A stretch of 42,065 nt of DNA from Escherichia coli (GCF_003334255.1 NZ_QOWU01000050.1), one strand, 5' to 3'. Shown: positions 1-11,800, numbered from the stretch's first letter. Program-made: numbers and translations. The notes: generated by a model from the sequence alone, not told the origin.

Positions 1-98
1 AGTTATCGTGAGAGTAATTCATCGGCACGTTAAATCATATCAGGCGTAATACCACAACCCTTAAGTTAGCGCTTATGGGTTTCGGCCCCGGTTCTCTT

Positions 99-725
99 TT
101 ATTTCTGCTTCGTTAACGTGTCATAACTGGTCATCAAATTACGATAATCAGGAATGTGGTTAGAGAACAACGTCGCCAGTCCTTCAATATCATTACGCCA
201 GTCGCGATGCAGCTCGCACGCCACGCCGAACCATGTCATCAATTGCGCACCAGCTTGCGACAAGCGATCCCATGCCGAATGCCGGGTAATTTCATTAAAG
301 GTCCCTGACGCGTCAGTCACGACAAAGACGTCAAACCCTTCTTCAATGGCTGAAAGCGCCGGGAATGCCACGCAAACTTCGGTTACCACACCGGCAATAA
401 TTAACTGTTTTTTACCTGTCGCTTTGACAGCTTTTACAAAATCTTCGTTATCCCAGGCGTTAATATTTCCCGGGCGAGCAATGTAAGGTGTATCGGGGAA
501 TTGTGCTTTCAGTTCTGGAACTAATGGGCCGTTAGGACCGGTTTCAAAACTGGTGGTAAGAATAGTTGGTAAGTTGAAATACTTAGCCAGGTCACCCAGC
601 GCCAGCACGTTATTTTTAAACTTATCGGGTTCGATATCCCGTACAAGGGAAAGTAAACCAGCCTGGTGATCAACAAGCAAAACGGCAGCATCATTTTTAT
701 CAAGACGAACATACGGTTTGGTCAT
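99..725 (-). CDS. ycaC: isochorismatase-family (cysteine) hydrolase YcaC
   Basis: Complete 208-aa ORF (MTKPYVRLDKNDAAVLLVDHQ...), isochorismatase-like fold signature with conserved Cys in ...VVTEVCVAFPA...; length and sequence agree with E. coli YcaC as I recall it. Confidence 0.9.
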   Translation of the reverse strand: MTKPYVRLDKNDAAVLLVDHQAGLLSLVRDIEPDKFKNNVLALGDLAKYFNLPTILTTSFETGPNGPLVPELKAQFPDTPYIARPGNINAWDNEDFVKAVKATGKKQLIIAGVVTEVCVAFPALSAIEEGFDVFVVTDASGTFNEITRHSAWDRLSQAGAQLMTWFGVACELHRDWRNDIEGLATLFSNHIPDYRNLMTSYDTLTKQK

Positions 726-753
726 CCTCTTCTCCTTTCGAGAGTCAGTGGTA

Positions 754-773
754 CGTCTGAAATCGATCAGACG
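754..773. promoter_or_regulatory. 20-bp palindrome CGTCTGA-N6-TCAGACG about 30 bp upstream of the ycaC start, candidate operator
   Basis: Read directly: cgtctgaaatcgatcagacg with perfect 7-bp inverted arms, in the ycaC/ycaD divergent intergenic region. Confidence 0.3.
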
Positions 774-1038
774 CGATGCATTGCTCTGAAAGCATAGACG
801 GGAAATATGAGTTTGCTGTGACCATGAAATTTTTCGACTGAACGAAGCGTATGAAATTTGTGTTAGTTCAATAAAAACAATCAGATGAGACTAATCATCT
901 CTTCAGCATTAGCGTTATGAATGAGTAATATAAATCGATAATACCGCCGCTGGGATATCGCGTATTTTCACCCATTGACAATGTTTTTGGCGGTGGCATG
1001 ATGCGCATGAAATTTGAACTTCCTCACGGTTTTAATTC

Positions 1039-2187
1039 ATGTCCACGTATACCCAGCCTGTCATGCTTTTGCTGTCTGGCCTGCTTTTGTTGACTCTGGC
1101 GATTGCGGTGTTAAATACACTCGTGCCGCTTTGGCTCGCCCAGGAACACATGTCCACATGGCAGGTAGGCGTTGTCAGCTCATCCTATTTTACCGGCAAC
1201 CTTGTCGGTACATTGCTGACAGGGTATGTCATTAAGCGCATTGGCTTTAACCGCAGCTATTATCTGGCCTCCTTCATTTTTGCCGCTGGCTGTGCCGGCC
1301 TTGGCCTGATGATTGGATTCTGGAGCTGGTTGGCTTGGCGTTTTGTCGCGGGCGTCGGCTGTGCCATGATTTGGGTGGTTGTTGAGAGCGCGCTGATGTG
1401 CAGTGGGACGTCACGTAACCGTGGGCGTTTGCTTGCTGCGTATATGATGGTTTATTACGTGGGAACGTTTTTAGGCCAGTTACTGGTCAGCAAAGTTTCA
1501 ACCGAGCTGATGTCCGTATTGCCGTGGGTTACAGGTTTGACGTTGGCAGGGATCTTACCGCTGTTGTTTACGCGTGTGCTGAATCAGCAGGCTGAAAACC
1601 ATGATTCGACGTCAATTACGTCAATGCTAAAACTCCGTCAGGCGCGGCTTGGCGTGAATGGCTGCATTATCTCAGGAATCGTTCTGGGATCTCTATATGG
1701 CCTGATGCCGCTGTACCTCAATCACAAAGGGGTGAGCAATGCCAGCATTGGTTTCTGGATGGCGGTACTGGTCAGTGCGGGTATCCTTGGACAATGGCCG
1801 ATTGGACGTCTGGCGGATAAGTTTGGTCGACTGCTGGTGTTGCGTGTTCAGGTCTTTGTCGTCATTCTCGGCAGTATCGCGATGCTTAGCCAGGCGGCGA
1901 TGGCCCCAGCGTTATTCATCCTCGGTGCCGCTGGCTTTACGCTATATCCGGTGGCGATGGCATGGGCTTGCGAGAAAGTTGAACATCATCAACTGGTGGC
2001 GATGAACCAGGCCTTACTGTTGAGCTATACTGTGGGAAGTCTGCTTGGCCCGTCATTTACCGCTATGCTAATGCAGAATTTCTCCGATAATTTATTGTTT
2101 ATCATGATCGCCAGCGTATCGTTTATCTATTTGCTGATGCTGCTGCGCAACGCCGGTCATACGCCGAAACCCGTTGCTCACGTGTAA
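1039..2187 (+). CDS. ycaD: MFS-family transporter YcaD
   Basis: Complete 382-aa ORF, highly hydrophobic multi-helix protein ([24 protein letters not shown]...), matches YcaD length and sequence as recalled. Confidence 0.9.
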
Positions 2188-2196
2188 ATGAATTCA

Positions 2197-2239
2197 AGCA
2201 GAGTGTGAACTTACTGTTTCACACTCTGCTTTTTTGTTT
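2197..2239 (+). terminator. intrinsic terminator downstream of ycaD
   Basis: 12-bp perfect stem agcagagtgtga / tcacactctgct with a 10-nt loop, followed by ttttttgttt, starting 10 nt after the ycaD stop. Confidence 0.8.
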
Positions 2240-2396
2240 CTTCTATCTGACTTGCTTTATTCCAAATTTTATTCGTTTAAAAATAAAATGTGCAGCAGGT
2301 TATAATTTTGCATTTCGCTATTTCCGCACTTCTTATTTGCCGCGCATAATCCCTCGTTTTACAGATGCCCCTTTAATTTTGGCGAAGGATTTGTCT

Positions 2397-3827
2397 ATGG
2401 CTGGGAATGTTCAGGAAAAACAGTTGCGATGGTACAACATTGCGCTGATGTCTTTTATCACTGTCTGGGGTTTTGGCAACGTTGTTAATAACTATGCCAA
2501 CCAGGGGCTGGTGGTTGTTTTTTCATGGGTGTTTATCTTTGCACTCTATTTCACACCTTATGCGCTAATTGTTGGTCAGTTAGGCTCGACCTTCAAAGAT
2601 GGGAAGGGCGGGGTCAGTACCTGGATTAAACACACGATGGGACCCGGACTGGCTTATCTCGCCGCGTGGACCTACTGGGTGGTGCATATTCCCTATCTGG
2701 CACAAAAACCCCAGGCAATTCTGATTGCGCTCGGTTGGGCGATGAAAGGCGACGGTTCGCTAATCAAAGAATATTCAGTCGTAGCGTTACAGGGGTTAAC
2801 GCTGGTGCTGTTTATCTTCTTTATGTGGGTTGCTTCACGCGGTATGAAATCGCTGAAAATCGTCGGTTCTGTGGCAGGGATTGCTATGTTTGTTATGTCG
2901 CTCCTGTATGTGGCGATGGCGGTAACCGCGCCTGCAATTACTGAAGTGCATATTGCGACCACAAACATTACCTGGGAAACGTTCATTCCTCATATCGACT
3001 TTACCTACATTACCACTATTTCAATGCTGGTTTTCGCGGTTGGCGGAGCAGAGAAGATTTCTCCTTACGTTAATCAAACGCGCAACCCAGGAAAAGAATT
3101 TCCAAAAGGGATGTTATGCCTGGCGGTGATGGTTGCGGTTTGTGCCATTCTGGGCTCGCTGGCGATGGGGATGATGTTTGATTCGCGTAATATCCCGGAT
3201 GACTTAATGACCAACGGTCAGTATTACGCCTTTCAGAAGCTGGGCGAGTATTACAACATGGGTAATACTTTAATGGTGATTTACGCCATTGCGAATACCC
3301 TGGGACAAGTAGCGGCGCTGGTATTCTCGATTGATGCCCCGCTTAAAGTGCTATTAGGTGATGCTGACAGCAAATATATTCCAGCCAGTTTATGTCGTAC
3401 CAACGCTTCTGGTACGCCCGTTAATGGCTATTTTCTGACCCTGGTACTGGTGGCGATTCTGATTATGCTGCCGACTCTCGGCATTGGTGATATGAACAAT
3501 CTCTATAAATGGCTGTTGAACCTTAATTCGGTAGTGATGCCGCTGCGTTATTTATGGGTATTTGTTGCATTTATTGCAGTCGTTCGCTTGGCGCAGAAAT
3601 ATAAACCAGAATATGTCTTTATTCGTAATAAGCCTCTGGCAATGACCGTCGGGATTTGGTGTTTTGCCTTTACCGCCTTTGCCTGTTTGACGGGGATCTT
3701 CCCGAAAATGGAAGCCTTCACTGCAGAGTGGACCTTCCAGTTGGCGCTGAATGTTGCAACGCCGTTTGTGCTGGTAGGATTAGGACTGATATTCCCGCTG
3801 CTGGCGCGTAAAGCGAATAGTAAATAA
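2397..3827 (+). CDS. ycaM: APC-superfamily amino acid/polyamine transporter YcaM
   Basis: 476-aa polytopic membrane protein starting MAGNVQEKQLRWYNIALMSF; ATG at 2397 preceded by an aagga Shine-Dalgarno. The ORF-track start at 2205 lies inside the ycaD terminator hairpin and is rejected. Confidence 0.85.
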   Translation: MAGNVQEKQLRWYNIALMSFITVWGFGNVVNNYANQGLVVVFSWVFIFALYFTPYALIVGQLGSTFKDGKGGVSTWIKHTMGPGLAYLAAWTYWVVHIPYLAQKPQAILIALGWAMKGDGSLIKEYSVVALQGLTLVLFIFFMWVASRGMKSLKIVGSVAGIAMFVMSLLYVAMAVTAPAITEVHIATTNITWETFIPHIDFTYITTISMLVFAVGGAEKISPYVNQTRNPGKEFPKGMLCLAVMVAVCAILGSLAMGMMFDSRNIPDDLMTNGQYYAFQKLGEYYNMGNTLMVIYAIANTLGQVAALVFSIDAPLKVLLGDADSKYIPASLCRTNASGTPVNGYFLTLVLVAILIMLPTLGIGDMNNLYKWLLNLNSVVMPLRYLWVFVAFIAVVRLAQKYKPEYVFIRNKPLAMTVGIWCFAFTAFACLTGIFPKMEAFTAEWTFQLALNVATPFVLVGLGLIFPLLARKANSK

Positions 3828-4736
3828 TTATTGTGGTCGGTGACGCTGACTCTGGCAGATCTGACCCGTTTTTACATAATCGAGAAATGCGCGCAAGCCG
3901 CAGGACATATACTGGCGGTTTGGATAATAGATCTGGAAGCCTGGACGCTCTGTGCTCCAGTCTTCCAGTACACATTCTAAACGACCAGTATCAAGGTACT
4001 CCTTGATCTGTTCATAGAGCAGATACCCGATACCAGCACCCATCAAAACGGCCTCCAGTTCAGCATCAACATCATCCAGAATGATATTTCCTGCGACAGC
4101 AATTTCCAGCTCCTTTGCAAATTGCCAGTGGAAAGGTTTGCCGCTGGGATAACGAAAAACAACACATTGATGATTAAGCAGATCATGAGGATGGCGGGGT
4201 TTGCCATATCTTGCAAAGTACTCTGGCGTTGCTGCTACACATAATTTCACTGGCGGGCCGATCGCCACGCTGATCATATCTTTTTCGACGATGCAACTAA
4301 GTCGAACGCCAGCGTCAAAGCCCTGTTGGACGATATCGACAAGAGAGTCGTCAGTTGTGAGCTCGACTTTAATATCAGGATATTCACGTGTGAAACCAAC
4401 CAGTAAAGACATTAAAAATATACGTGCAGCTACCCGGGCGGCATTGATTTTGAGCGTTCCTGTCGGTGTCAGACGAAAATCATTCATCTCATCTAACATG
4501 ATCTGAATTTCGTCGAAAGCTGGGCGCAATCGTTCATAGAGATTAGAACCCGCTTCCGTTAACGATACGCTTCGGGTTGTCCGATTGAATAAGCGAATTT
4601 TAAGACGTTGTTCCAGTGTTTTAATACTATGGCTAATGGCGGACGAGGATAAGCCTAACTCATCGCCCGCTGCACGAAAGCTTTGATTACGGGCCACGGC
4701 AAAGAAAGTGGCAAAGTCAGACATATTCATCCGCAT
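3828..4736 (-). CDS. ycaN: LysR-family transcriptional regulator YcaN
   Basis: 302-aa ORF with N-terminal LysR-type HTH (FATFFAVARNQSFRAAGDELGLSSSAISHSIKTLEQRL) and a C-terminal substrate-binding domain; convergent and directly abutting the ycaM stop. Confidence 0.9.
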   Translation of the reverse strand: MRMNMSDFATFFAVARNQSFRAAGDELGLSSSAISHSIKTLEQRLKIRLFNRTTRSVSLTEAGSNLYERLRPAFDEIQIMLDEMNDFRLTPTGTLKINAARVAARIFLMSLLVGFTREYPDIKVELTTDDSLVDIVQQGFDAGVRLSCIVEKDMISVAIGPPVKLCVAATPEYFARYGKPRHPHDLLNHQCVVFRYPSGKPFHWQFAKELEIAVAGNIILDDVDAELEAVLMGAGIGYLLYEQIKEYLDTGRLECVLEDWSTERPGFQIYYPNRQYMSCGLRAFLDYVKTGQICQSQRHRPQ

Positions 4737-4759
4737 TAGTGAAAATCCTTCATTAACTC

Positions 4760-4785
4760 ATCCTGAATCATCACGTTTACAGGAT
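4760..4785. promoter_or_regulatory. inverted repeat ATCCTG-N14-CAGGAT in the ycaN/ycaK divergent intergenic region, candidate LysR-type operator
   Basis: Read directly; located between the divergent ycaN (start 4736) and ycaK (start 4836) start codons. Confidence 0.3.
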
Positions 4786-4835
4786 TATGCCGCCTGCGTA
4801 AAGTGCGCTCCAGAACTTAACGTGGAGGTAAAATT

Positions 4836-5426
4836 ATGCAGTCTGAACGTATTTATTTGGTATGGGCCCATCCTCGTCATGATTCATTGACCGCACATAT
4901 TGCTGATGCGATCCATCAGCGGGCAATGGAGCGGAAAATACAGGTGACGGAACTCGATTTATATCGGCGTAATTTCAACCCAGTGATGACGCCGGAAGAT
5001 GAACCAGACTGGAAGAATATGGATAAACGTTATTCTCCAGAGGTTCATCAGCTTTATTCAGAGCTGCTTGAACATGACACGTTAGTGGTGGTTTTTCCTC
5101 TCTGGTGGTACAGCTTCCCGGCAATGCTAAAAGGATATATTGACAGAGTATGGAATAATGGGCTGGCTTATGGAGATGGGCACAAATTACCATTCAATAA
5201 AGTTCGTTGGGTGGCGCTGGTTGGAGGAGACAAAGAATCATTTGTCCAGATGGGCTGGGAAAAAAATATAAGCGATTATTTAAAAAATATGTGCAGTTAT
5301 CTTGGTATTGAAGATGCCGATGTCACTTTCTTGTGTAATACAGTGGTATTCGATGGGGAAGAACTTCACGCGAGCTATTATCAGTCGTTATTATCTCAGG
5401 TACGGGATATGGTAGATGCACTATAA
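4836..5426 (+). CDS. ycaK: flavodoxin-like NAD(P)H oxidoreductase-family protein YcaK (KefF/KefG/MdaB-like)
   Basis: 196-aa ORF (MQSERIYLVWAHPRHDSLTAH...) with the N-terminal motif typical of NAD(P)H dehydrogenase (quinone)-like proteins; matches YcaK. Confidence 0.9.
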   Translation: MQSERIYLVWAHPRHDSLTAHIADAIHQRAMERKIQVTELDLYRRNFNPVMTPEDEPDWKNMDKRYSPEVHQLYSELLEHDTLVVVFPLWWYSFPAMLKGYIDRVWNNGLAYGDGHKLPFNKVRWVALVGGDKESFVQMGWEKNISDYLKNMCSYLGIEDADVTFLCNTVVFDGEELHASYYQSLLSQVRDMVDAL

Positions 5427-5465
5427 GATGTGTTAAAAACGCTGTAGCAGAATGAAGCGCGGAAT

Positions 5466-5498
5466 AAAAAAGCGGCAACTCAATAAAGTTGCCGCTTT
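5466..5498. terminator. bidirectional intrinsic terminator shared by convergent ycaK and pflA
   Basis: Perfect 10-bp stem agcggcaact / agttgccgct with loop caataa, flanked by aaaaa on one side and ttt on the other. Confidence 0.75.
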
Positions 5499-5507
5499 AC
5501 GGGGAAA

Positions 5508-6248
5508 TTAGAACATTACCTTATGACCGTACTGCTCAAGAATGCCTTTCACGCGTTCCATGGTCTCTTTCTTCGGTGGTTTAACACCGTCGAGTTTGTA
5601 CTCTTCACCCATTGCCACCCATTTGTGTTTGCCCAGCTCGTGGTAGGGGAGAAGCTCGATTTTCTCAACGTTGCCCATATCACGGGTAAATTCACCGAGG
5701 CGATGCGCTGAATCGTCATCGTCAGACCAGCCTGGGACAACAACGTAGCGGATCCACACCTTCACATTTTTGTTCGCCAGATATTTAGCGAACTCCAGCG
5801 TGCGGTGGTTGGAAACTCCAACCAGATTTTGGTGGATCTCGTCGTTCATCTGTTTGAGATCGAGCATTACCAGGTCGGTTACTTCCAGCAGTTCATCAAT
5901 CACCGGATCGTAACGACGAACAAAACCGTTGGTGTCCAGACAGGTATGAATGCCTTCTTTTTTGCAGGCGCGGAACCAGTCACGAACAAACTCAGCTTGC
6001 AGGATTGCTTCACCGCCGGATGCGGTAACGCCGCCGCCGGAAGCGTTCATAAAGTGGCGATAGGTCACCACTTCCTTCATCAAATCTTCAACGGTAACTT
6101 CTTTACCGCCATGCGTGTCCCAGGTGTCGCGGTTATGACAATACAGGCAGCGCATCAGGCAGCCCTGGAAAAAGGTGATAAAGCGAATACCTGGGCCGTC
6201 TACGGTTCCACAGGATTCAAAGGAGTGAATGCGACCAATAACTGACAT
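5508..6248 (-). CDS. pflA: pyruvate formate-lyase activating enzyme (radical SAM)
   Basis: 246-aa ORF starting [20 protein letters not shown] with the CX3CX2C radical-SAM cluster motif ([10 protein letters not shown]); ATG at 6248 has a ggaga Shine-Dalgarno. The 9-codon upstream extension in the ORF track is rejected. Confidence 0.93.
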
Positions 6249-6371
6249 TGCGGTGTTTCTCCAGATGTGGCCCATCTGAGGCCGTGTTGGTGCGCAGCTC
6301 GAAGGCTACGTCGAGTCTGTTTTGGCAGTCACCTTAAAGTATAGATAGCTGACAAAAAAGGCTCTCGCGCT

Positions 6372-6400
6372 AAAAAAGGCCCCACTTTCGTGGAGCCTTT
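6372..6400 (-). terminator. intrinsic terminator downstream of pflB
   Basis: On the minus strand ggctccac-gaaa-gtggggcc followed by tttttt, about 40 nt after the pflB stop. Confidence 0.7.
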
Positions 6401-6439
6401 ATTGTACGCTTTTTACTGTACGATTTCAGTCAAATCTAA

Positions 6440-8722
<2,283 letters not shown>

Positions 8723-9708: not shown

Positions 9709-10039
9709 ATCTCGCCTGGCTTATAGGCCCGTAACTCGCATGGTTTTTATGCAAATACGGAGTAAATATTTGATTATCCAAATAAAAATAAATTTTAAAA
9801 ATTAACAAATGAGTTGAATTTTTTCCGCATCCTCCGCTAAAACAGTTAATTAAAAGGGAGCATCAGGCGAATAAAGTAACAATATCGATCGTATTTATTA
9901 AATACAAATTACCGATATTTAACCTTATAATTACAATTATTTTATTAATGCAAATATATGTAAAGCGGGGCATTAAAAAAACGCCCCGTAATATAACTCA
10001 GACTAATCATTAAGCCTACATTGCGTAGGCTATTTGATT

Positions 10040-11800
10040 TTATTTTGCCCAGAATGCTGCTTTGGCGCGCTGCAGCTTTTCGTAGGCCTTCAACAACGAC
10101 TGATGTGCAGCAAACGCGTGCAGATCGCTATCTACCGGTTGCAGGCCGTAAAACGCCGCTTCGCCGCTCATTGCCGCACTGGCGGCTTCTACGGCATCTG
10201 CGCCGTACATGCGAACAAACGCATTCAGATATTGCAGCGGCTGGCGATCTTCTTCCTGTGCCAGTAATAACAACGTTTGCAGGCAGCGATAATAGTTGGC
10301 GCGTTCCGGACTAAATACTGATGAGTTAAACTCCATCGTCCATTCGGTCCAGACCAGAGCCTGTTCCAGATCGCCACCAGCCAGCGCCAGCATGGCTTTT
10401 AATTCACCGATACGCAGGGTGTACCAACCGTTATCCGACCCGGTCGCCAGACCCAACAGCTCACGCACGCGGGTAAAGTCATCAAAACCTTCTTCATCCA
10501 GTTGCTCGATGAGGTTCAGGTAATCTTCTTTTTCCCACTCGCTGCCTGGTAGCGAAAGAATCGTTTCACGTAAATGGCTGCCCATACTGTTATTCGCGAG
10601 CCACAGATCTTCAGCCGGATAAATATCGGACATGCCAGGCACGATAATACGGCAAGCATAAACGCCCAGATGCTCGTAATCGGCAATATAAACTTCTTTA
10701 TCTTCTTTGTTGAAGATAGCCATCAGTGTGGCGAACTCTTCTTCCGTGGTGCCGGAGAAATTCCAGTCCACAAACGGATAATCGGCATCCTGCTTGAACA
10801 GGTCCCAGGAGATTAAACCGCTGGAATCGATAAAGTGCGTTTCGAGGTTGGTATGTTCAGCGACTTCTTCATCATCGAAGGTTGGCGGAGTAAACACATC
10901 CAAATCTTTCAGGCCACGACCTTGCAGCAGCTCGGTCACGGTACGTTCCAGTGCTACGCCAAAATCAGGATGCGCACCGAAAGAGGCAAAGCAGGTACCG
11001 TTAGCAGGATTGAACAGTACCACGCAAATCACCGGATACTGGCCGCCAAGCGAACCGTCATAAGCGAAGATTGGGAAACCCTCCGCTTCCAGCGTTTCGA
11101 TGGCTTCAACTACTGCTGGGTAACGCGCCAGCACGTCTGCCGGGATCTCTGGCAGGCTGATGCTTTCAGCAATAATGCGGTTTTTCACGTAGCGTTCGAA
11201 AACTTCAGACAATCCCTGAACGCGTGCTTCGTTGCGGGTATTACCTGCGGACATACCGTTGGAGACGTACAGGTTACCAATGATATTCATCGGAATATAA
11301 ACGGTCTGATTGTCGGACTGACGCGTAAACGGCAGGCCGCAAATACCACGATCTTCGTTACCGGATTGTAGGTCAATCAGCATGCTGCCGGTCAGTTCAT
11401 TCTCCGGATCATAAAACGCGCGCAGACGGTCATCGAGCAGCCCTTCTGGCACATCGTCATTTTCGGTCAGTGGGAACCATTTTTCGTTGGGATAATGCAC
11501 GAACGGACCGTTGGCGATGGTTTCGCCCAGCCAGAAGTCCGCAAAAAAGTAGTTGGTTGAGAGACGCTCGAAATATTCACCGAGTGCAGAAGCCAGCGCC
11601 GCTTTCTTGGTTGCGCCTTTACCGTTGGTAAAACACAGTGCGCACTCTTTGTCGCGAATATGTACAGACCAGACGTTAGGCACGGGATTCAGCCAGGAGG
11701 CCTCTTCAATCTGAAAGCCGAGGTCTGAAAGTTTTTGCTGGAAGCGAGCGATGGAATCTTCCAGAGCGGCATCTTTGCCGGGGATAAATGTTTGCGTCAT
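10040..11800 (-). CDS. ycaO: YcaO-domain protein (ATP-dependent amide-activating family; ribosomal S12 methylthiolation accessory factor in E. coli)
   Basis: 586-aa ORF starting MTQTFIPGKDAALEDSIARFQQKL; matches YcaO. The TTG-initiated 11-codon extension in the ORF track is rejected. Confidence 0.9.
   Translation of the reverse strand: MTQTFIPGKDAALEDSIARFQQKLSDLGFQIEEASWLNPVPNVWSVHIRDKECALCFTNGKGATKKAALASALGEYFERLSTNYFFADFWLGETIANGPFVHYPNEKWFPLTENDDVPEGLLDDRLRAFYDPENELTGSMLIDLQSGNEDRGICGLPFTRQSDNQTVYIPMNIIGNLYVSNGMSAGNTRNEARVQGLSEVFERYVKNRIIAESISLPEIPADVLARYPAVVEAIETLEAEGFPIFAYDGSLGGQYPVICVVLFNPANGTCFASFGAHPDFGVALERTVTELLQGRGLKDLDVFTPPTFDDEEVAEHTNLETHFIDSSGLISWDLFKQDADYPFVDWNFSGTTEEEFATLMAIFNKEDKEVYIADYEHLGVYACRIIVPGMSDIYPAEDLWLANNSMGSHLRETILSLPGSEWEKEDYLNLIEQLDEEGFDDFTRVRELLGLATGSDNGWYTLRIGELKAMLALAGGDLEQALVWTEWTMEFNSSVFSPERANYYRCLQTLLLLAQEEDRQPLQYLNAFVRMYGADAVEAASAAMSGEAAFYGLQPVDSDLHAFAAHQSLLKAYEKLQRAKAAFWAK

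Follow-up and report, generated by a model that had tools for sequence, protein, structure and literature searches.

In the classical arrangement of LysR-type systems, the regulator gene lies divergent from its target, as in IlvY-ilvC, CynR-cynTSX, AaeR-aaeXAB and PunR-punC, and the recognition site of the regulator is usually positioned at about -65 of the target promoter. Here, we analysed a locus with this layout, the ycaN-ycaK pair of Escherichia coli, in a window of 42,065 nucleotides (GCF_003334255.1, NZ_QOWU01000050.1; "the window" denotes this whole stretch of DNA). Positions 99-5426 of the window correspond to the E. coli genes ycaC-ycaD-ycaM-ycaN-ycaK, with dmsC on one side and pflA on the other. 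Like the classical systems, YcaN has HTH_1 and LysR_substrate domains, its gene faces a divergent putative target over a spacer of ~100 bp, and a predicted T-N11-A site lies near -65 of ycaK, overlapping the leader of the regulator gene. Unlike these systems, ycaN-ycaK is known from sequence comparison, and the best matches of YcaN among the named regulators, namely, YafC, AaeR, GcvA and TtdR, all fall under the respective cut-offs. We propose, with a probability of roughly 0.6, that ycaN-ycaK is a self-contained two-gene sensor/effector module, in which YcaN controls ycaK and YcaK is a reductase.

Two groups of described systems resemble the putative effector side of this pair. The modelled fold of YcaK matches those of the Flavodoxin_2 (PF02525) quinone oxidoreductases NQO1, NQO2, Methanothermobacter NQO (4R81), Smu.1420 and KefF, with template-modelling (TM) scores of 0.77-0.86, and YcaK and its orthologues share the family-conserved motifs HPRxxSLT, located in the N-terminal loop, and FPxWW...PAxLKGxxDRV. 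They differ from these enzymes in the motif DEPDW, which is invariant in and specific to the YcaK group, and in the identity of YcaK to solved structures, which is 17-24%. Quinone and diamide sensors such as YodB and CatR belong to the HxlR family, and in the quinone/diamide stress modules of Firmicutes an HxlR/DUF24 regulator of this type controls a reductase or dioxygenase gene. These modules are similar to ycaN-ycaK in that, at 36 loci of Paenibacillaceae and related bacteria, a gene of the YcaK family lies divergent from a dedicated small regulator. However, this regulator is of the HxlR rather than the LysR type (~124 amino acids, PF01638, E-value 2.5e-36), and the identity of these homologues to YcaK is only 38-46%. 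YcaN itself is one of the seven regulators covered by studies of LysR y-genes in E. coli (PMC8464067, PMC9068703), which likewise named adjacent y-genes as targets; the published targets are ycaC and ycaD, whereas the comparative evidence presented here points to ycaK.

A divergent gene pair with a conserved control region

The initial annotation of this DNA had suggested YcaN and ycaK as a plausible sensor/effector pair, and had proposed a comparison of genome contexts across Enterobacteriaceae as a check. This comparison supports the suggestion, as the divergent pair and its spacer are kept in ten genera, mostly among unrelated neighbours, and the two genes are lost jointly in E. coli. In a scan for YcaK using one genome per species, close orthologues were found in Limnobaculum and Rahnella only, where it is oriented divergently to a gene for a YcaN orthologue (identities of 74% and 69%, respectively) located ~100 bp away, in unrelated neighbourhoods. 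No Escherichia locus was returned by this species-representative scan, one possible reason being that the representative Escherichia genome carries a deletion allele (see below). Starting from homologues of YcaN, we found the pair in seven further species, belonging to Pseudocitrobacter, Hafnia, Shimwellia, Serratia, Leminorella, Pantoea and Pseudomonas, which together with Escherichia make up the ten genera. The spacer between ycaN and the divergent Flavodoxin_2 gene is 97-101 bp long, and the distinct neighbourhoods in which the pair occurs number at least seven. Across the genera, the pair has unrelated flanking genes except in Shimwellia and Pseudocitrobacter, two syntenic Enterobacteriaceae in which the pair has the same position between pflA and ycaD and is accompanied by neither ycaM nor ycaC; these are also the only two genera where ycaD adjoins ycaN. 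At the nine loci outside E. coli, no homologue of YcaC or YcaM was found within ~5 kb of the pair.

Within E. coli, we counted the presence of the genes in 5,426 complete genomes, a clinically biased set, so that these counts should not be taken as population frequencies. A query running from ycaC to pflA was matched in every genome, and ycaC and ycaD are present in 100% of them, whereas ycaM is found in 4,358 (80%) and the ycaN-ycaK segment in 3,317 (61%). Hence ycaN and ycaK are missing from ~39% of the genomes, and they are lost together. These losses are explained by two fixed deletion alleles, each with a single junction (Table 1). The allele lacking ycaN-ycaK keeps a 3' remnant of ycaN, which measures 113 nt by the alignment breakpoint and is annotated in RefSeq as a 111-nt pseudogene, while the left edge of the allele that also lacks ycaM coincides with the ycaD terminator, as seen in the junction alignment. 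In both deletion-allele loci inspected, ycaC, ycaD and pflA are retained. Cattle strain 140 carries the ycaN-ycaK deletion allele and O157:H7 strain TB21-1 is without the pair; the contiguous ycaD-pflA junction is absent from both strains. At the ycaN-ycaK junction, ~40 nt have no high-identity match to the full allele and resemble a diverged 3' end of ycaK.

The ten spacers can be aligned without gaps over ~95 columns. The predicted YcaN recognition site in E. coli, a 19-bp imperfect palindrome (Table 1), abuts the ATG of ycaN and overlaps the ycaN Shine-Dalgarno sequence. Its core is a T-N11-A box of the form TGA-N7-TCA at 4740-4752, whose arms, TGA (4740-4742) and TCA (4750-4752), form a perfect dyad and are invariant across the ten genera; the ycaN start codon is invariant or nearly so. 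When the window was scanned on both strands with a weight matrix built from eight genera, with E. coli and Pseudocitrobacter left out, this site ranked first with 26 bits, versus 16 bits for the next one, which lies inside pflB; no second copy of the box is present in this DNA. In the regions upstream of ycaC, ycaD, ycaM and focA, no counterpart of the box scores above 7 bits, the best ones reaching 5-7 bits. The sigma-70-like promoter of ycaK was picked up independently by a blind consensus scan, and the TT..CA of its -35 hexamer and the TAA..T of its -10 hexamer are invariant; both hexamers are 100% identical to those of E. coli in seven of the nine other genera. As the ycaK transcription start is predicted at ~4811 on the plus strand, the T-N11-A box upstream of this divergent gene is centred at about -65, a position that rests on the predicted start. 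Between the box and the -35 hexamer lies a further conserved stretch, in which T4761 and AA4766-4767 are invariant and T4768 is nearly so, and which is a candidate for the activation-site region contacted by a LysR tetramer. The 68-nt core of the spacer is 66-93% identical to that of E. coli across Enterobacterales, whereas at the four-fold-degenerate sites of ycaN and ycaK the identity to E. coli is just 19-41%, these sites thus being saturated. Therefore, the conservation of the spacer is not due to recent common ancestry, and the box and the promoter are under selection.

For ycaN itself, a hexamer on the minus strand may, rather weakly, represent the -10 element of its promoter, since a -10-like hexamer is found at this column in eight of the ten genera; no conserved -35 element for ycaN was found in the spacer alignment. 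The arrangement has a variant in Cedecea neteri, which has a YcaN paralogue (53% identical) with the same TGA-N7-TCA box beside its ATG and the hexamer TAAAGT at the same column (locus coordinates 4880-5015 and 3914-4891). The divergent partner of this paralogue is a 325-amino-acid protein with a weak match to an NADP-binding Rossmann domain (PF03435). The same control region is apparently used in Cedecea with a different effector.

Putative function of the pair and its alternatives

YcaN is a member of the LysR family, as PF00126 and PF03466 are found on the YcaN cluster and on all full-length orthologues listed, and 53 NCBIfam models of the family match YcaN over its full length; the annotated start codon of ycaN is backed by the alignment of orthologues. 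Its scores against the named LysR equivalogs YafC, AaeR, TtdR, DsdC and GcvA remain below their cut-offs, the best being that for YafC (155.7 bits versus 470). By this comparison, YcaN is orthologous to none of the regulators characterised so far.

YcaK scores 354 bits against the NAD(P)H oxidoreductase family PRK09739 (NCBIfam, cut-off 162), and PF02525 and PF03358 are present on all its orthologues, which places it in the Flavodoxin_2 family. Its sequence matches in the PDB are quinone reductases. An AlphaFold2 model of YcaK, built from 14 homologues, has a predicted local distance difference test score (pLDDT) of 86 and a predicted TM score (pTM) of 0.86, and a Foldseek search with this model returned 4R81 (TM score 0.85) and NQO2 (0.83) with a probability of 1.00. 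The model thus shows an NQO1/NQO2-type fold. The initial annotation had mentioned detoxification of quinones or electrophiles as an example of what the pair might do, and this idea fits both the modelled fold and the Firmicute homologues encoded beside HxlR-type regulators, whose pairing is itself consistent with an inducible detoxification role. Moreover, seven genes were deleted as candidate nitroreductases to obtain E. coli strain 7NT, and ycaK is one of them (PMC8215503); it has likewise been removed as a candidate nitroreductase in prodrug-screening strains.

Putting these elements together, we propose that YcaN binds the palindromic T-N11-A box at 4740-4752, ~65 bp upstream of the predicted ycaK start, and that it represses its own gene from there. 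Autorepression would be expected because the box lies in the 5' leader of ycaN, over its ribosome-binding site. When bound to a co-inducer, YcaN would contact a second site beside the -35 hexamer and activate the TTTACA-17-TAAAGT promoter of ycaK. YcaK would then act as a flavin-dependent NAD(P)H oxidoreductase with the fold of NQO1, NQO2 and KefF, and would most likely reduce an exogenous quinone, a nitroaromatic or a similar electrophile in a two-electron step.

Several points weigh against this proposal, and the published experiments are the main ones. In chromatin immunoprecipitation with exonuclease digestion (ChIP-exo) of YcaN-8myc in glucose M9 medium, six sites were reported, at cspE, ynjB, yobF, ung, rho and yihQ, with signal/noise ratios of 1.1-4.5 and none at ycaN/ycaK (PMC8464067 Dataset S4). 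As two of these positions recur in the lists of other factors in the same study, the experiment may have failed to capture specific binding by YcaN. In RNA sequencing (RNA-seq) of a ycaN knockout, 702 genes changed, with ycaC down and ycaD and focA up; ycaK is not reported among the changes in the text of that paper, where the authors call the role of YcaN "unknown" and predict ycaC and ycaD as its targets (PMC9068703). These two data sets neither support nor firmly contradict control of ycaK by YcaN. The alignment of YcaN orthologues contains no invariant cysteine, and a thiol-based electrophile sensor in YcaN, which we had considered, is not indicated; ligand binding is therefore likelier than thiol modification. 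Because the middle of the box and the ycaN Shine-Dalgarno sequence overlap, some of the conservation of the box may be due to this sequence; the TGA and TCA arms are not accounted for in this way, however, since the arms and not the Shine-Dalgarno sequence are invariant. Finally, we found no enzymatic or kinetic data for YcaK in the literature consulted, and likewise no known inducer.

As an alternative, YcaN might be a local regulator of the whole neighbourhood, i.e., of ycaC, ycaD, focA and perhaps ycaM, which is how the published knockout study interprets its data and comes close to the block suggested in the initial annotation. Beside the expression changes, the knockout study reports impaired use of formate (PMC9068703), and the adjacency of ycaD and ycaN in Shimwellia and Pseudocitrobacter points in the same direction. 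Nevertheless, we consider this explanation unlikely, as the ycaC-ycaD, ycaD-ycaM and focA-upstream regions contain no counterpart of the box, none of the nine loci outside E. coli has ycaC or ycaM, whose presence patterns within E. coli also differ from that of the pair, and YcaN yielded no ChIP-exo site in the neighbourhood (PMC8464067). Furthermore, a response of 702 genes in late-exponential cultures is likely to include indirect or cassette effects. It is also improbable that YcaN controls only itself or distant genes and that the spacer is conserved just to hold two promoters. Some LysR regulators do act on remote targets, and no experiment connects YcaN to ycaK; however, promoter hexamers alone cannot account for an invariant T-N11-A palindrome at about -65, nor for the fact that the 40 nt separating the box from the -35 hexamer are almost fully conserved. 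The joint gain and loss of ycaN and ycaK also speaks against this alternative.

On the effector side, YcaK might, instead of being a detoxifying enzyme, serve a transporter as a regulatory or ancillary subunit, in the way that KefF serves KefC and KefG serves KefB, with YcaM or YcaD as its potential partner. YcaK has weak similarity to KefF (59 bits) and KefG (50.5 bits), its PDB matches include the KefF portion of 3EYW, a KefC-KefF fusion structure, and in E. coli the pair lies next to transporter genes. However, the two scores are far under the cut-offs of 210 and 240, respectively, ycaK is monocistronic with its own promoter, and its best fold matches are free-standing quinone reductases. 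In addition, no transporter family is kept beside the pair across the genera, and no kef-like gene is adjacent to it in any locus. We therefore regard a transporter-subunit function of YcaK as very improbable, and retain the reading of ycaN-ycaK as a regulator and reductase module.

Neighbouring genes and the ycaD-pflA gap

Six-frame calling recovered the five open reading frames (ORFs) of this segment with the orientations -, +, +, -, +, and both these ORFs and the ycaN/ycaK spacer are exactly as the initial annotation had given them. Because ORF calls, RefSeq and NCBIfam agree, its observation and its coordinates are correct, except that the LysR regulator, which it had put at the centre of the five genes, is the fourth of them. 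Over bases 1-6300, no difference from E. coli FORC 064 exists (100% identity), and RefSeq gives this strain the same genes at the same coordinates. The coordinates of all features are collected in Table 1.

Table 1 Features in and around the ycaC-ycaK segment; positions are counted from the first letter of the window
Feature	Position	Strand	Remarks
IS4-like IS421-family element end	1..76		Insertion separating dmsC from ycaC in this strain; outside the ycaN-ycaK module
ycaC	99..725	-	Isochorismatase-family cysteine hydrolase; own transcription unit; in all E. coli genomes searched
ycaD promoter-like site	975..1002	+	TTGACA-16-CATGAT with upstream TG; consensus scan only
ycaD	1039..2187	+	Major facilitator superfamily (MFS) transporter, core gene; PRK03633 profile
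ycaD intrinsic terminator	2196..2231	+	14-bp stem followed by a T run; terminator scan
ycaM-ycaN-ycaK deletion allele	2238..5465 missing		Junction in 1,047 genomes; ycaD terminator joined to pflA terminator
ycaM promoter-like site	2277..2306	+	TTAAAA-18-TATAAT; consensus scan only
ycaM	2397..3827	+	Amino acid-polyamine-organocation (APC) family permease, GadC/YjeM-like group; accessory gene
ycaN	3828..4736	-	LysR-type regulator, PF00126 + PF03466
ycaN-ycaK deletion allele	3941..5451 missing		Junction in 1,022 genomes
ycaN/ycaK spacer	4737-4835	divergent	99 bp
Predicted YcaN recognition site	4737..4755		19-bp imperfect palindrome TAGTGAAAATCCTTCATTA
Conserved stretch from box to -35	4758..4781		CATCnnnAAT ...; ungapped alignment; candidate activation-site region for LysR tetramer
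ycaK sigma-70-like promoter	4776..4804	+	Predicted; -35 TTTACA 4776-4781, 17-nt spacer, -10 TAAAGT 4799-4804
Candidate ycaN -10 hexamer	4784..4789	-	CATAAT; -10-like hexamer at this column in 8/10 genera
ycaK	4836..5426	+	Flavodoxin_2-family, NAD(P)H:quinone-oxidoreductase-like; Shine-Dalgarno GGAGG at 4824-4828
Hairpin terminator, convergent ycaK/pflA	5469..5498	-	Called on pflA strand only

The five genes had been regarded as one block. This does not hold, as they are five transcription units with differing presence and absence in E. coli, and they do not co-occur outside this species. With neither co-transcription nor co-occurrence to join all five, they do not form a single operon or functional cluster, and ycaC, ycaD and ycaM would be unrelated neighbours of the pair. 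The GC content at third codon positions is 0.41-0.45 in ycaC, ycaN and ycaK, 0.53 in ycaM, and 0.58-0.61 in ycaD, pflA and pflB. A scan of positions 1-6500 of the window for RNA families in Rfam at permissive E-values gave just two sub-threshold matches, which we attribute to chance. The hairpin terminator between the convergent ycaK and pflA genes, which probably also serves ycaK, coincides with the right edge of both deletion alleles or lies slightly beyond it.

The window opens with bases 1-82, which match transposase regions of IS421 at other sites, and the annotation of FORC 064 places the IS421 element here; most E. coli genomes align to the window from base 77 on, i.e., without this insertion. 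YcaC matches the NCBIfam equivalog NF041461 with 403 bits (cut-off 310) and is the protein of PDB entry 1YAC (E-value 1e-137), and hence belongs to the isochorismatase family; its substrate is still unknown (PMC4519933). A strong ChIP-exo peak upstream of ycaC (~726-800), assigned to this gene with a signal/noise ratio of 47.8, is a peak of YcjW (PMC8464067 Dataset S4), and was accordingly rejected as a YcaN site. YcaD scores 728 bits against PRK03633 (NCBIfam, cut-off 361).

The ORF of ycaM reaches mechanically back to a GTG at 2205, and the RefSeq start at 2397 fits the length of its homologues (472-487 amino acids). Its domains, PF13520 and PF00324, are those of the APC superfamily, and its scores are below the NCBIfam equivalog cut-offs for YjeM (161 bits versus 400) and GadC (102 versus 640), so that YcaM does not qualify as a glutamate/GABA antiporter by these models. 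Among the best 120 hits, the closest relatives of YcaM outside Escherichia and Salmonella come from Paenibacillus, Brevibacillus and Clostridium, with 63-71% identity, and no other Proteobacteria are found; Salmonella ycaM is 82.5% identical and has the same position between ycaD and pflA. This distribution suggests that ycaM was acquired from Firmicutes long ago, before Escherichia and Salmonella diverged. The 270-500 bp leaders of the Firmicute homologues contain no riboswitch or T-box of any Rfam family at threshold, and the DNA upstream of these homologues is not similar to the E. coli sequence. It had been supposed that the ycaM transporter could share the ligand of YcaN. This idea finds no support, since ycaM is missing at every ycaN-ycaK locus outside E. 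coli and has no box upstream. A 2025 paper tied ycaM to killing by colistin.

The stop codons of ycaM and ycaN abut (3827|3828), a terminator scan found no terminator between them on either strand, and ycaM-ycaN is listed as a convergent excludon, i.e., a pair with overlapping transcripts (PMC12288877). For these reasons, transcription of ycaM could interfere with that of ycaN. The C-terminal tag on ycaN in the published ChIP-exo experiment would also disturb this junction.

The gap between ycaD and pflA differs in content among E. coli, Shimwellia, Pseudocitrobacter and Salmonella, and is therefore a site of repeated gain and loss. In Salmonella, the gene order is dmsABC-ycaD-ycaM-pflA, ycaC is absent, and no remnants of ycaN or ycaK were found between ycaM and pflA. 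The sole constant association across these comparisons is that of ycaN with ycaK. In Pseudocitrobacter corydidari, an extra LysR regulator and a choloylglycine-hydrolase-family gene are located between ycaK and pflA (locus coordinates 2217-4278). In Salmonella enterica, a gene for a SopD-family effector lies between pflA and pflB (locus coordinates 9939-10898), and this insertion again points to the dms-pfl region as a hotspot of gene insertion.

Biological implications

From the comparisons presented here, ycaN-ycaK would be an ordinary LysR-plus-target system of a very familiar kind, and what is new is that its predicted operator and promoter have been defined. More tentatively, and we think this rather doubtful, the pair might be a portable cassette of a sensor, a ~100 bp control region and a reductase, moved among or patchily retained across Enterobacterales and into Pseudomonas, which answers one niche-specific quinone-like or nitroaromatic compound and whose control region serves as a modular "plug-in" promoter/operator. 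If so, the segregation of two old deletion alleles in E. coli and the absence of the pair from 39% of its genomes would be accounted for, and the re-use of the control region with a different oxidoreductase in Cedecea would be an instance of a modular promoter/operator.

The gain would consist in the annotation of two y-genes and a small addition to the known bacterial defences against quinones and electrophiles, with no new principle involved. YcaN is among the E. coli transcription factors still listed without an assigned role, and the published screens named other targets, ycaC and ycaD. The comparative evidence yields a precise hypothesis that can be tested cheaply, as it names a single target gene, its promoter and a site of 19 bp. 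About two-fifths of the E. coli genomes, including that of O157:H7 TB21-1, are natural ycaN-ycaK knockouts and can be used for phenotype comparison.

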